A DNA stretch of 64,000 nucleotides, taken from positions 32,001-96,000 of the IMG/VR virus record IMGVR_UViG_3300009161_000023. One strand, written 5' to 3'. The position numbers and the translations under genes are program-made. Below, piece by piece: positions 1,763-32,198 of the stretch (position 1 is the stretch's first letter; the number at the start of each line of letters is the position of its first letter). Under the pieces are notes generated by a model. That model had not been told where the DNA came from, ran no database searches, and worked only from the letters and a program-made list of their open reading frames with translations. The DNA comes from a virus.

Positions 1763-2550
1763 TGTGTGGATTAGCTGGATTTATTGGAACATCAAAAAAT
1801 AAAGATTTATCTTTTAAATTGATTACATCTATTTTTTTAAATTCTCAAGTTAGAGGAATTGATGCATGTGGATTTTATGCTTGTGCAAATGAAAATACTT
1901 TTTTTCACAAACAAAAAGGAAAAGCAAGCAGTTTAATAGAATCAAATATTTGGAATGATTTAAAACTTCAAGACTTAGATTTATTATTAGCACATACTAG
2001 AAGAACATCGTTAAATTCTGGATCTTCTGAATTTAATATTAACAATCATCCTTTTGTTCTTGATAATTCAGCATTAATACACAATGGAGTTATTCATGAT
2101 TATGAAAAAATAAAAGAATTTATTGAAACTGCTTCTACTTGTGACTCAGAAGTATTATTGAATTTTATCTCTAATTATACCGATAATTATTTTTTAGATA
2201 GATTAGAAAAAATTAAAGAACTTTTATTCTTTATAAGAAACAGCGAGTTTGCTTTTTGTTTATCAGATAAATTAAAAAATTCAAAGAATATATGGCTTGT
2301 TAAAAACGATAAAAGACCATTGTTTTTAATCAATTGTAAAGAAGACTTGAATCAATATTTTTTTCTTTCAACTATTGAAATTTGGCAAGATTCCATAGAA
2401 AAAATAAAAAATATTAATAAACTTTTACCAAATTATAGTATTTTAGAAATACCAAATTATTCAATATTAAACATTTGTTTTGAAAATAATAAATTTAAAG
2501 AAATTTTTTTTAACTATAATACTTTTGATTTTGAAGAAAAATATTATTGA
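1762..2550 (+). CDS. class II (Ntn) glutamine amidotransferase
   Basis: N-terminal MCGLAG nucleophile, RGIDACG, LAHTR, NNHPF, HNGVI, TCDSE. Confidence 0.88.
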   Translation: MCGLAGFIGTSKNKDLSFKLITSIFLNSQVRGIDACGFYACANENTFFHKQKGKASSLIESNIWNDLKLQDLDLLLAHTRRTSLNSGSSEFNINNHPFVLDNSALIHNGVIHDYEKIKEFIETASTCDSEVLLNFISNYTDNYFLDRLEKIKELLFFIRNSEFAFCLSDKLKNSKNIWLVKNDKRPLFLINCKEDLNQYFFLSTIEIWQDSIEKIKNINKLLPNYSILEIPNYSILNICFENNKFKEIFFNYNTFDFEEKYY

Positions 2551-2566
2551 TTAATTAGGAGGATAT

Positions 2567-3100
2567 ATGAATGAAGATTGGGAAAAAGATTATGAAGTTG
2601 ATGATATTTTGAAAAATGAGAAAAAAACAAAAAAAGTAAATGGTAATAGCAAGGGTAAAAGAACTGAAAGATCTTTAGCAAATATATTAAATAAAAGATT
2701 TACTAGTGGTTTTAGTCGTACAGTAGGTTCTGGAAATCGTTGGGCACAAGTAAAAAACTTACCTCAACACGCAAAAGACACTTTGACAGGCGATTTGTGC
2801 TGTCCTGAAGGATTTAAATTTGTAATTGAATCTAAAGGTGGCTATTCAAAGGTTGATTTAAACAACATATTTGATAAGGGAAACTCAGAGTTAGATGAGT
2901 TTATCGAGCAAGTTTCTAAAGATTCAGAAAGATGTGAAAAAAAACCATTGCTGATATGGAAAAAAAATCATAAGCCTTGGCTTGCTTTTGTAAAGAGTCA
3001 AGATTTACAAGGGGACTATAACTACAAGATTATATATAGAGATTGGGTTATTGTACCATTAAAAGAACTTCTTGAATTACCAGATAGTTATTTTTTTTAA
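2567..3100 (+). CDS. Hjc-like PD-(D/E)XK Holliday junction resolvase
   Basis: NSKGKRTERSL..., SG, GDL, VIESKGG motifs typical of archaeal/phage Hjc-type resolvases. Confidence 0.75.
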   Translation: MNEDWEKDYEVDDILKNEKKTKKVNGNSKGKRTERSLANILNKRFTSGFSRTVGSGNRWAQVKNLPQHAKDTLTGDLCCPEGFKFVIESKGGYSKVDLNNIFDKGNSELDEFIEQVSKDSERCEKKPLLIWKKNHKPWLAFVKSQDLQGDYNYKIIYRDWVIVPLKELLELPDSYFF

Positions 3101-6876: not shown

Positions 6877-7617
6877 TTAATTATAAATTTGTAAAGATTG
6901 ACGATCACTAATGTAAATGTTTTCTCCTAGCTCTAATTCAAACCAAACATCATAAATTGCTATTTCTAAATCAGTAGTATCAAGCATATAGTAACCATAT
7001 AATTTTTCACGATAATCCATATTTGCTTTTTCAACTACTAATCTTAAATCCTGTTCGCATGGTAAACAATTGCCAGTTCTCTGCTCAATTGAAATTTTTA
7101 AATCACCTCTAATAGCTAAATTTTCGTAATATCTTTGAAGATCGGTTCCTTTTGGAACATTAGGTGTAATCTGAGCGATTAAATACTGTTTAGAGCCTTT
7201 TCTAAAGCGATTAGGTCTAAATTGAAATGTAAAATCATAAACAACTGGAATTGGTGCTGTGTACCAAAGATCTGGATATGTTTGAAAAATATTTGTTATG
7301 CTTGTAGGTTCTTCACATCCTTCAAAAATAACATTCCATACATCTAAGTAATAGCCAATTGTATAAGTTGGTTCAGATGTTTGTAAGTCTAAAAGATACT
7401 TACCTGTACTTTCCCTGACAACATCTTCCCCATCTATTTTTTGAACTAAATAACTTTGGGTTGGGTTTGAAATATCAGAACTTGGAGATTCAACTTTGTA
7501 AATATCAATATAATTTATAGTTTTTATATTTGCAAAGTTGTTTGAGTTGTAAACAAATAATCTTAATTTTATCTTATCGCCAACAACAGGATTTTGATAT
7601 CTTTCTTTAATAGTCAT
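6877..7617 (-). CDS. hypothetical protein, probably virion structural (beta-rich, two Ig-like halves)
   Basis: Long ORF in the tail operon; alternating beta-strand pattern; no motif assigned. Confidence 0.5.
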   Translation of the reverse strand: MTIKERYQNPVVGDKIKLRLFVYNSNNFANIKTINYIDIYKVESPSSDISNPTQSYLVQKIDGEDVVRESTGKYLLDLQTSEPTYTIGYYLDVWNVIFEGCEEPTSITNIFQTYPDLWYTAPIPVVYDFTFQFRPNRFRKGSKQYLIAQITPNVPKGTDLQRYYENLAIRGDLKISIEQRTGNCLPCEQDLRLVVEKANMDYREKLYGYYMLDTTDLEIAIYDVWFELELGENIYISDRQSLQIYN

Positions 7618-7624
7618 ATATTAT

Positions 7625-7843
7625 TTATCGCTTTTTTTTGCTTTGTTTTTTAACTTCTTCGTTTTCTTTTTCTCTTTGATCGATAAATCTATTAATTAAA
7701 AAAACTCTTTCATTAATAGGTAATCTCATAGTTACAAACCTATCCATGTGAAGATGATACTGGAAAAAGAAAATAACTTCAGCTAGGTTATTCCATAAAA
7801 TTAGGCTTGCGTCTGTTCCTTCTTCCGCCTTGGGAAGAAAAAA
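7625..7843 (-). CDS. gp51-like C-terminal segment reached by -1 frameshift (FFLPKAEEGTDASLILWNNLAEVIFFFQYHLHMDRFVTMRLPINERVFLINRFIDQREKENEEVKKQSKKKR)
   Basis: Manual translation: -1 frame is open from the slippery site to TAA at 7625-7627; no ATG before the conserved-looking core; resembles the T4 gp51 pattern F..QYH.....M...ER......E.EN. Confidence 0.7.
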   Translation of the reverse strand, partial: FFLPKAEEGTDASLILWNNLAEVIFFFQYHLHMDRFVTMRLPINERVFLINRFIDQREKENEEVKKQSKKKR

Positions 7844-8916
7844 CTTGTATCTAGCGGTAGATCAATATCAAATTCAGCTAAACAGCTTGGACATCCCATT
7901 GGAATCTTAGTATCAAGCCCCCAACCTGGGTCGGTTACAATGCCTCTTAAATAAGAAATATCTTGCATTGAAAGGTTTTTAATAATATAAAGAATTTCAT
8001 TTTTATCTTTTACATTTTCAATACTTTCTACAAGTTGAGAAATTCTGTAAGTTAATGTATCATCTGCTGCTTGATCACCATATTTCTTAACTCTTCTTTC
8101 TCGATGATCTTGAATTTCAAATTCATCTTTTCCTAAAGACATTCTATAAGTAAAACTAAAATTACTTTTTGGTAATTTGCCACAAAGATCAGCAGAAGAA
8201 GAAAGATTTTCTGGAGGATTATCAACTGGAATACTATTCAGATCAATACTAGTTGCAAACTTAGAAGAGCATTCAGGACATTTGATTTCTACATCATAAG
8301 CTGGCCCATAACTAATACCACGAAGATAAATAAGCAAAAATGTACGATCAATAGAAAGCAAGCTTTGCGTTTGTGTTTTTTCTTCAATGCATCTTTGGAA
8401 TATCATATCCAAAGCTTGTCCTTTTTTTATAAATCTTGGAGTTGCTAAGATTTGTTCTTCCTCACCTGTCATCGGTCTAATGTGAAGCTTTCCGTTAGTA
8501 GGCCCATCTTCTCCATTATAAAACTTACCTAATGATGGAAGAGTTATTTCTTCATATAAAGAAGATTGATTTTTTAAAGATTCTAATAAATTAGTTAATT
8601 CTAAGCTAGCATTTCTTGGTACAACAAAATTTGGTTTAACAGGATTAACATTTACTCTTGATTGTGTTGAGTTTTCAAAAGAAGCATTTTCTTCATTTTC
8701 TTCTTGCACTCTTTTCAAAGCTTTGGCTACTGCTGGTGGCATATGACCAGAAACCCCAGGTATGTTCATAACATCACTTGGTTTCAAAGGTGCTTTTTTA
8801 TTTGAATCTTCTTTGCTTGAATTTTGTCTCAATGGATGATTTTCTGGTAATGAGTCAAGATCTGATTGATTTAATCCAATAGGTTGATTTTGCTGTCTTA
8901 ATATTTCATCTGCCAT
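7801..8916 (-). CDS. gp26: T4 gp26-like baseplate hub / tail assembly chaperone
   Basis: EEITLPSLG, IRPMTGEEEQIL, IDRTFLLIYLRGISYG, CPECS Zn motif, CPSC. Confidence 0.75.
   Translation of the reverse strand: MADEILRQQNQPIGLNQSDLDSLPENHPLRQNSSKEDSNKKAPLKPSDVMNIPGVSGHMPPAVAKALKRVQEENEENASFENSTQSRVNVNPVKPNFVVPRNASLELTNLLESLKNQSSLYEEITLPSLGKFYNGEDGPTNGKLHIRPMTGEEEQILATPRFIKKGQALDMIFQRCIEEKTQTQSLLSIDRTFLLIYLRGISYGPAYDVEIKCPECSSKFATSIDLNSIPVDNPPENLSSSADLCGKLPKSNFSFTYRMSLGKDEFEIQDHRERRVKKYGDQAADDTLTYRISQLVESIENVKDKNEILYIIKNLSMQDISYLRGIVTDPGWGLDTKIPMGCPSCLAEFDIDLPLDTSFFFPRRKKEQTQA
7837..7843 (-). other. putative -1 ribosomal frameshift heptamer T TTT TTC
   Basis: Minus strand reads AGT TTT TTC in frame 0, exactly X XXY YYZ phasing, 12 codons before the stop. 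Confidence 0.7.
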
Positions 8917-31614: not shown

Positions 31615-32198
31615 TTTTTTGGCCCTCTTTTTAAATTAATACCTTTTAGTTTTTCTTTATGCATGTCTTTTTTATTTTTTAAATCATCCATTATGCTTTT
31701 TAAACTTTTAGTCATACTAGAAGCATTTATTTCTCCGCTAATTTTTTCATTGCTAGTTACAGAAACAGTTTTTTTACTTTTATTATAGAAACCTTTGCTT
31801 AGTACAAACATATCAATTTTATGATTGTAACTTATTAGTCCACACCAGCCTCCATCATCCCAGTTTCTTGCACTTACAATTATTCTATATGGTTCTTCAT
31901 CAAATATTAATTTAACATGATATCCTTCTCTTTTTAAAGCAGCACTTACATATCCAAGTGAAATTTTTGCAAATCCACTTAATGCATCTTCTTTATTTGT
32001 ACGATAATTTATTTCTACAGAATATCTTGTGTGCTCAATTGATTCTGTTATAATATTATTGTTTTCTTTTAAAATATTTGAAAAATATTCTTTGCAAATA
32101 GAAGTAAAGCCTTCTAAATCTTCTTGATTTATATCTTTAACATTATCAAAAAGATCAGAAAAAACTTCTTGTTTATATTGTTTGTAATTTTTCATCAT
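31611..32198 (-). CDS. hypothetical protein with capsid-targeting-like N-terminus
   Basis: MKNYKQYKQE; TAAATA upstream. Confidence 0.55.
   Translation of the reverse strand: MMKNYKQYKQEVFSDLFDNVKDINQEDLEGFTSICKEYFSNILKENNNIITESIEHTRYSVEINYRTNKEDALSGFAKISLGYVSAALKREGYHVKLIFDEEPYRIIVSARNWDDGGWCGLISYNHKIDMFVLSKGFYNKSKKTVSVTSNEKISGEINASSMTKSLKSIMDDLKNKKDMHKEKLKGINLKRGPKN

Follow-up and report, generated by a model that had tools for sequence, protein, structure and literature searches.

Does the gp26-like gene of an uncultured freshwater T4-related phage encode one protein or two? The gene is located on the minus strand (7801..8916) of the window, i.e. the whole stretch of 64,000 nucleotides (nt) analysed here, which covers positions 32,001 to 96,000 of the IMG/VR virus record IMGVR_UViG_3300009161_000023. 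The list of open reading frames (ORFs) gives its product as 371 amino acids (aa) followed by TAA. A first-pass annotation of the same DNA had proposed that a programmed -1 frameshift joins this protein to a hidden downstream ORF, and had linked the resulting pair of proteins to the G/GT tail assembly chaperones of lambda. The present analysis indicates that, in this chaperone gene of the gp26/gp51 family, ribosomes very probably undergo a programmed -1 frameshift of the G/GT type, and that a long form is to be predicted next to the annotated one. The proposal of a short form along with a long form that is extended at its C-terminus, similarly to G/GT, is well supported, as it fits the comparative, fold and synteny evidence.

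Slippery heptamer and open -1 frame

The gene product belongs to the gp26/gp51 family. It matched PF12322 (T4_baseplate) with 72.9 bits (E 3.9e-20, residues 137-354 against positions 14-212 of the 219 in the profile), above the Pfam gathering score of 24.5 bits, and phrog_150 ('baseplate hub') with E 3e-23. The 3' end of the gene reads ...GAT ACA AGT TTT TTC TTC CCA AGG CGG AAG AAG GAA CAG ACG CAA GCC TAA, which gives the zero-frame C-terminus ...DTSFFFPRRKKEQTQA before the stop. The slippery heptamer T TTT TTC (7843-7837) is contained in the codons AGT TTT TTC and was placed 13 codons ahead of the TAA at 7803-7801; its X XXY YYZ phase can be read directly from the sequence. From the C at 7837, the -1 frame reads LPKAEEGTDASLILWNNLAEVIFFFQYHLHMDRF...KKR over 70 aa (in full LPKAEEGTDASLILWNNLAEVIFFFQYHLHMDRFVTMRLPINERVFLINRFIDQREKENEEVKKQSKKKR) and ends with the TAA at 7627-7625. 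The heptamer, its phase, the open frame (counted here as 70 codons) and the gp26-like nature of the gene were therefore all confirmed. A canonical tandem slip would connect residues 1-360 to the extension, ..DTSFF being followed by LPKAEEG.., in a predicted long form of 430 aa; the first-pass annotation had given this junction too. As had been remarked earlier, the ORF list misses this extension. The only ORF that it shows in the -1 frame has 40 aa and opens at the first ATG of that frame (7747), past the conserved FFFQYHLH core.

Conservation of both features was followed in 82 loci, namely the window, LR756511.1 and 80 loci from an IMG/VR scan (44-72% amino-acid identity), which represent 62 distinct nucleotide sequences on contigs of 25-54% GC. 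The phased T TTT TTC was present in 82/82 loci, and in each of them the -1 frame was open from the heptamer for 68-79 codons, well beyond what chance would produce. LR756511.1, an uncultured 595-kb phage and the closest GenBank record, displays the same heptamer at the same place with a homologous peptide in the -1 frame. All of the 62 distinct sequences have a T as the last base of the codon ahead of the heptamer (AAT, AGT or GGT), and TTT as the first Phe codon. In the remainder of these genes, TTT and TTC occur in a ratio of 494:335, and AAT and AAC in a ratio of 798:467, while the third base of the Pro codon after the slip site is saturated (A/C/T/G = 19/17/15/7). These counts clearly showed that the synonymous sites which make the heptamer are frozen and their neighbours saturated; the naive joint probability for both synonymous positions to be invariant in 62/62 sequences is 1e-36. 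The slip site is conserved more strictly than the encoded amino acids demand, and comparison of the loci argues strongly for a programmed -1 frameshift.

Conservation of the -1 peptide sets in at the slip site and has the periodicity of coding sequence. The consensus of the extension in alignment A1 (57 sequences) is LP..EEG..PSL.LW..LAEEIFFFQYHLH.DM...M.LPIN.RKWMI.RFI.QKEKEN. Entropy by codon position amounted to 0.92/0.65/1.44 in the -1 frame and to 0.72/0.42/1.50 in the zero frame upstream, which is the same pattern. Within the overlap (7801..7837), low entropy was observed at the zero-frame third positions, which correspond to the first positions of the -1 frame (0.33, 0.44, 0.0), and also at the third positions of the -1 frame. 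Both reading frames are constrained in this overlap.

An exhaustive profile search of 1.84 billion proteins returned 231 relatives of the extension, nearly all of which are ORFs of 32-120 aa. They begin at varying profile positions (14, 19, 26, 29, 37), and such ORFs, cut at arbitrary positions, are what gene callers yield when a frame has no true start. Two in-frame fusions, both singletons, were recovered by the exhaustive search: a clean one of 327 aa (P0026), in which ..ETGFF is followed by LPSPD.. at exactly the predicted junction, and an error-ridden fragment (P0044). The IMG/VR relatives of P0026 all have the frameshift layout, and no in-frame fused relative was found by a word-index search for longer proteins. 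The sole PHROG match of the extension family was phrog_20255, to which no function is assigned and which was matched by 42/57 members. The 70-aa peptide gave nothing meaningful in Pfam, PHROGs and NCBIfam, and the extension profile had no match among the PDB sequences. The extension domain (..EE.FF..YHLHM....A.P..KRKW.I.RF..QK..EKE) also occurs in the free-standing proteins P0021, P0024 and P0034 (115-123 aa) and P0035 (145 aa), where it is surrounded by N- and C-terminal parts of their own; they originate from short ENA contigs.

Fold, gene order and relatives in cultured phages

An AF2 model of residues 118-371 (pLDDT 86) was aligned by VIA-align to 48,161 PDB chains. YqbN of B. subtilis (3klu) ranked first with Z 7.3, a root-mean-square deviation of 2.8 and 81 aligned residues, followed by the uncharacterised chains 3fgx (Z 5.2) and 5ir0 (Z 5.1), and by the HK97 tail assembly chaperone (2ob9, Z 5.1) on rank four; the next row, on rank five, had Z 3.4. 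All four top chains align to the same part of the PF12322 domain, residues 241-330, which suggests a fold of the tail assembly chaperone type. YqbN and the HK97 chaperone, the best and fourth-best structural matches to these residues, differ from the window protein in that sequence identity is 6-9%, ~85 of 371 residues are matched and the Z scores are moderate. For the fusion P0026, AF2 modelled (pLDDT 88) a disordered linker at the junction and two long helices behind it. A Foldseek comparison of this model with the PDB returned nothing at E<=0.001, and in VIA-align the extension matched only generic helical hairpins with Z about 5. The N-terminal ~115 residues of the window protein (residues 1-117, encoded at 8566-8916 on the minus strand) are rich in Q, N, S, P and E and have no counterpart in T4 gp26 or gp51. 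The length of this part varies among relatives, many tblastn matches starting only at query residue 55-106.

Homologues were also found in cultured phages. In the jumbo phage PA5oct, a phased heptamer (GTA AGT TTT TTC) leads into a homologous -1 extension of the 'baseplate hub' gene. The same holds for Atu_ph07 (CAT TTT TTC), and in RsoM2USA, the third cultured jumbo phage, the extension lies in the -1 frame with a T9 run. The -1 extension is unannotated in all three. In SP-15, LIS04, HSE3, GXN1, Mel-JY01 and immuto, the extension is found in the +1 frame after TTY TTT N, with the motifs ..LALWN.I..EQF.LSYY..ER.. and ..LHDEIF..MPI.LRRY... The sites read GAA TTT TTT CAC, GAG TTT TTT AGT, TTC TTT CGT, TTT TTT TGG and TTT CTT TGG, and their sequences suggest a +1 (or -2) shift on UUU_N in these six phages. 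A small 'hypothetical protein' or nothing at all is annotated there at the extension. As a single-protein query against IMG/VR, the SP-15 homologue found only itself.

In SP-15, LIS04, HSE3, the Flavobacterium phage immuto and probably Mel-JY01, the genes are arranged in the order sheath, tube, the distant homologue, a small unannotated or 'hypothetical' stretch, and tape measure. The slot between tube and tape measure occupied by the homologue in these phages is the classical chaperone slot. In T4, the order is 51-27-28-29, gene 29 being the tape measure gene.

A frameshift is annotated neither in the records of the three jumbo phages nor in those of the six phages with a +1-frame extension, and no paper on a frameshift in a gp26/gp51 gene was found by full-text literature search. 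Systems of this kind are known, but for the gp26/gp51 family none appears to have been described in the searched literature or in GenBank annotation. The long form is missing from the records of PA5oct, Atu_ph07, RsoM2USA, SP-15, LIS04, HSE3, Mel-JY01 and immuto, and a collection of 5.8 billion proteins holds the extension only as truncated ORFs of 32-120 aa.

The features of the window and the extensions in cultured phages are collected in Table 1. The neighbours of the gene in the window are a gene of 246 aa, LicD-like and glycosyltransferase (sugar-modification) genes and small divergent ORFs. An ORF of 240-249 aa is located downstream in 75/82 loci, mostly 2-3 nt after the extension stop. 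The 246-aa product had no match in Pfam, PHROG or NCBIfam, nor with T4 gp25, gp27, gp28 and gp29 by hhalign, and its neighbours in the Atlas are unnamed viral clusters.

Table 1. Location of the gene, its proposed recoding site and related features in the window and in cultured phages.
Sequence	Feature	Position	Strand	Basis
Window	Short form, gp26/gp51 family (PF12322), zero frame	7801..8916	minus	ORF list, PF12322, phrog_150
Window	Tail-assembly-chaperone-like fold (predicted), residues 241-330 in the PF12322 domain	7927..8196	minus	AF2 model; all four top chains align here
Window	Slippery heptamer T TTT TTC, X XXY YYZ phase (codons AGT TTT TTC)	7837..7843	minus	Sequence and conservation
Window	-1 frame extension, 70 codons and TAA	7625..7837	minus	Translation; conservation
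Window	Dual-coding overlap, zero frame ..FPRRKKEQTQA and stop, -1 frame LPKAEEGTDASL	7801..7837	minus	Entropy in both frames
Window	40-aa ATG ORF as called by gene callers, truncated rear of the extension	7625..7747	minus	ORF list; P0002, 40 aa, 100% identical
Window	Conserved downstream gene, 246 aa, beginning 7 nt past the extension stop	6877..7617	minus	
PA5oct (L103)	-1 frame extension	2792-3030		
Atu_ph07 (L101)	-1 frame extension	2277-2513		
RsoM2USA (L100)	-1 frame extension	2222-2480		
SP-15 (L083)	+1 frame extension	1951-2176		
LIS04 (L084)	+1 frame extension	1888-2130		
HSE3 (L099)	+1 frame extension	2210-2431		
GXN1 (L098)	+1 frame extension	2200-2500		
Mel-JY01 (L085)	+1 frame extension	1939-2164		
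immuto (L102)	+1 frame extension	2190-2437		

Proposed ribosomal slippage and its alternatives

The frame break is not an assembly error, since independent freshwater DNA runs carry the region without indels and an RNA-library contig has the genomic T6. This contig (7727-7900) spans both the heptamer and the zero-frame stop, and is one of several from three lake metatranscriptome studies that cover parts of the gene. The RNA contigs are short and of low depth, and neither minor slipped transcripts nor the level of transcription are visible in them; they therefore do not separate ribosomal from transcriptional slippage.

According to the proposed mechanism, the gene would specify a baseplate-hub (tail) assembly chaperone of the gp26/gp51 family. 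Most ribosomes would keep to the zero frame at T TTT TTC and terminate 11 codons on, which produces the 371-aa short form. A minority would slip back by one base with two tRNA-Phe on UUU UUC and read 70 more codons in the -1 frame, so that the 430-aa long form would consist of the shared first 360 residues and an extension at the C-terminus that is basic and helical. If lambda G/GT and phage P2 E/E+E' are taken as models, the shared part may hold an assembly intermediate of the tape measure or of the hub. On the same analogy, the extension would contribute a second contact, and how often ribosomes slip would determine the ratio between both forms. We infer that the ribosome slips and not RNA polymerase, and likewise the slip efficiency and the chaperone roles of both forms.

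Several observations weigh against a ribosomal frameshift in a tail chaperone gene. The fold match with Z 7.3 falls in the range that VIA-align calls 'middling', and the window gene is not located beside tube or tape measure genes. The only clean fusion, P0026, was met just once, in one Logan contig, and a homopolymer error could account for it. The slip site itself is a homopolymer, and its U6 run could in principle give slippage of RNA polymerase. Finally, neither a conserved downstream hairpin or pseudoknot nor a Shine-Dalgarno-like stimulator upstream of the heptamer was found.

With respect to RNA structure, the first-pass annotation had pointed out that CTTCC could pair with GGAAG, and AGGC with GCCT, in the sequence following the heptamer. 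These segments are present in the sequence, but their pairing is neither conserved nor stable. RNAalifold predicted 0 pairs on 58 aligned downstream segments, and the 60 nt downstream in the window fold with -5.2 kcal/mol, at z +1.5 versus shuffles. Single-sequence folds of the 60 nt after the heptamer had a mean z of -0.8 versus shuffles. The CTTCC/GGAAG stem was rejected as a stimulatory element, as it begins inside the heptamer, leaves no spacer and is unconserved. Because no stimulator was found, the efficiency of the frameshift may be low. The lambda G/GT shift reportedly works, at a few percent, without such an RNA structure.

Among the alternatives, slippage during transcription survives best, though it is improbable. 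RNA polymerase would add one U at the U6 run in some transcripts, and the same long form would result. The T9 run of RsoM2USA at the homologous place points in this direction, as do the relatives in which T6/T7 runs give access to the extension in the +1 frame, since one slippage-prone run could serve either direction. An RNA contig (run X17, depth 2.2) with one extra base in the T7 run at 7697 was also counted in its favour. However, the run at the slip site is exactly six in 62/62 sequences and never longer, although TTT would be synonymous for the second Phe, and efficient slippage of bacterial RNA polymerase needs about 8-9 A or T. Moreover, HSE3, GXN1 and immuto have the extension without any homopolymer (TTC TTT C, TTT CTT T). 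The RNA contig across the slip site has T6, even if contigs hide minor variants. As for the T7 run at 7697 (GTTTTTTTAA on the minus strand, inside the extension ORF), the extra base in run X17 is most likely an error at that depth, but slippage of the polymerase would give indels of this kind.

Slightly less probable still is a separate small gene in the -1 frame, expressed without any fusion by termination-reinitiation at the gp26 stop or from a start of its own, which may be non-canonical (e.g. AUU). In its favour, some ATG, GTG or TTG stands before the core in 35/62 loci. In LR756511.1 the zero-frame stop shares bases with an ATG (TAATG) immediately before the core, and the TAA of the window does so with an ATT; internal initiation at AUU is said to occur in gene 26 of T4. 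In addition, P0021, P0024 and P0034 are free-standing homologues, each with an N-terminus of its own. On the other hand, no ATG, GTG or TTG occurs between the slip site and the conserved FFF core in 27/62 distinct loci, window included, which bears out what had been claimed for this ORF. Where start codons are present ahead of the core, their position is not conserved (codons 13-23) and they lack a Shine-Dalgarno-like sequence in front. There is also variation in the codon that overlaps the zero-frame stop (CTA, ATA, TTA, GTA). The residues EEG and PS of the -1 frame, upstream of the zero-frame stop, are under selection; in four loci with an early zero-frame stop (L036, L059, L071, L074), the SPSL.LW motif lies past that stop, yet before any start codon. 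In most loci a -1 frame stop is found only 4-10 codons upstream of the heptamer. With a separate gene, the invariant synonymous positions of the heptamer would have no reason.

It is very unlikely, and the least probable of all, that heptamer and open frame are by-products of a conserved xFFFP and an AT-rich composition, with the downstream ORF not expressed: FFF indeed forces TTY TTY TTY, so that the protein sequence accounts for much of the T run, but this is contradicted by the frozen synonymous positions, invariant across GC 25-54%, and by the codon-position entropy, with variation mainly at third positions of a -1 frame kept open in 82/82 loci, and the peptide has its 231 database relatives.

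Relation to T4 gp26 and gp51 and to known chaperone systems

Two hub assembly chaperones, gp26 (208 aa) and gp51 (249 aa), are listed for T4 (Leiman et al., 2010, PMC3004832, Table 2). Both matched PF12322, gp26 with residues 1-206 (E 8.8e-64, 215.6 bits) and gp51 with residues 1-201 (E 3.9e-52, 177.5 bits). By these profile matches the two proteins are paralogues, gp51 having ~48 extra C-terminal residues. While T4 has two PF12322 genes, one each was found in the four complete genomes with a frameshift site, namely LR756511.1, the 532-kb IMG/VR genome behind locus L039, PA5oct and Atu_ph07.

The -1 frame had been described in the first-pass annotation as a hidden gp51-like ORF. This holds to the extent that the extension shows a weak likeness to the ~48-residue C-terminal tail of gp51; no likeness to the whole of gp51 was found. 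Comparison of the 57-sequence extension profile with T4 gp51 or with a 10-sequence gp51 alignment (hhalign) gave no match, nor did HMMER between the extension and the gp51 tail. A 202-sequence extension profile gave a marginal result, a weak collinear match with columns 197-252 of the 10-sequence gp51 alignment (hhalign score 19.3, P 0.013). Column-shuffled gp51 tails scored 9.4 +/- 2.0, and the real score was reached by 1/300 shuffles. This profile match gives weak, position-consistent support to a resemblance between the extension and the gp51 tail. Within PF12322, where gp26 and gp51 are paralogues, gp51 would be the counterpart of the entire long form and gp26 that of the short form.

In the T4 relatives RB16 (L111) and KP13MC5-1 (L112), gene 51 is directly followed by gene 26 on the same strand in the order 54-51-26, with an overlap of 4-8 nt. 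Such a tandem, unlike the divergent pair of T4, is what duplication of one ancestral gene would leave. The gp51 homologue of Acinetobacter phage Octan (L107, MT409116.1, 61-816) is named 'tape measure protein assembly chaperone'. A chaperone of the tape measure has thus already been seen in gp51 by one annotator at least; no paper that explains the label was found.

With slightly better than even confidence, the PF12322 proteins gp26 and gp51 can be regarded as the tail assembly chaperone of the T4 superfamily. Its ancestor would have been one frameshifted gene, with T TTT TTC as the -1 site of many jumbo and T4-related phages and UUU_N as the +1 site of SP-15-like and other phages; T4 would have resolved this frameshift into gp26 (= G) and gp51 (= GT). 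If true, T4-type phages cease to be an apparent exception to the conserved chaperone frameshift. For the T4 hub chaperones, which are poorly understood, the finding provides a link to the well-studied G/GT mechanism and a model in which gp26 and gp51 may act, as short and long form of a single chaperone, either on the hub or on the tape measure gp29. It also suggests frameshift and gene duplication to be interchangeable solutions to one need. With hosts that can be cultivated (P. aeruginosa for PA5oct and A. tumefaciens for Atu_ph07), the prediction is directly testable.

T4 gp26, T4 gp51 and the window protein all belong to PF12322. With gp26 as the domain alone and gp51 as the domain with a tail, the T4 pair parallels the short form and the predicted long form. 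In the weak profile match, common motifs (EE-I-F-x-F ... P-x-E-R ... I-E-K) occur in the same order in the gp51 tail and in the extension. In contrast, T4 has two separate, divergently transcribed genes and no frameshift, gp26 and gp51 are devoid of the long N-terminal region of the window protein, and the marginal similarity between tail and extension was missed by three other comparisons.

Frameshifting in tail assembly chaperone genes is reportedly conserved in long-tailed phages, lambda gpG/gpGT included. Similarly to lambda G/GT, two nested products would share one start in the window, a -1 slip on X XXY YYZ would take place a few codons before the short-form stop, and the second ORF has no start of its own. 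Strong stimulatory RNA structure is lacking in both, the shared part may have a chaperone-like fold according to the model, and relatives are located between tube and tape measure genes. Differences are the much larger shared part, a PF12322 protein of 371 aa with a zinc-ribbon-like insert and disordered N-terminal ~115 residues, the position of the window gene away from tube and tape measure genes, and the lack of sequence similarity to gpG or gpT. The function proposed for the window protein is by analogy that of G/GT.

In the myophage P2, a -1 frameshift on T TTT TTG is said to occur in the tail chaperone gene, producing gpE and gpE+E'. The P2 proteins are of another family and size, and E/E' lies directly before the tape measure gene T. 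P2 E/E+E' and the window system have in common a contractile tail, a U-rich heptamer of the same type and the pairing of a short with an extended form, which is predicted for the window.

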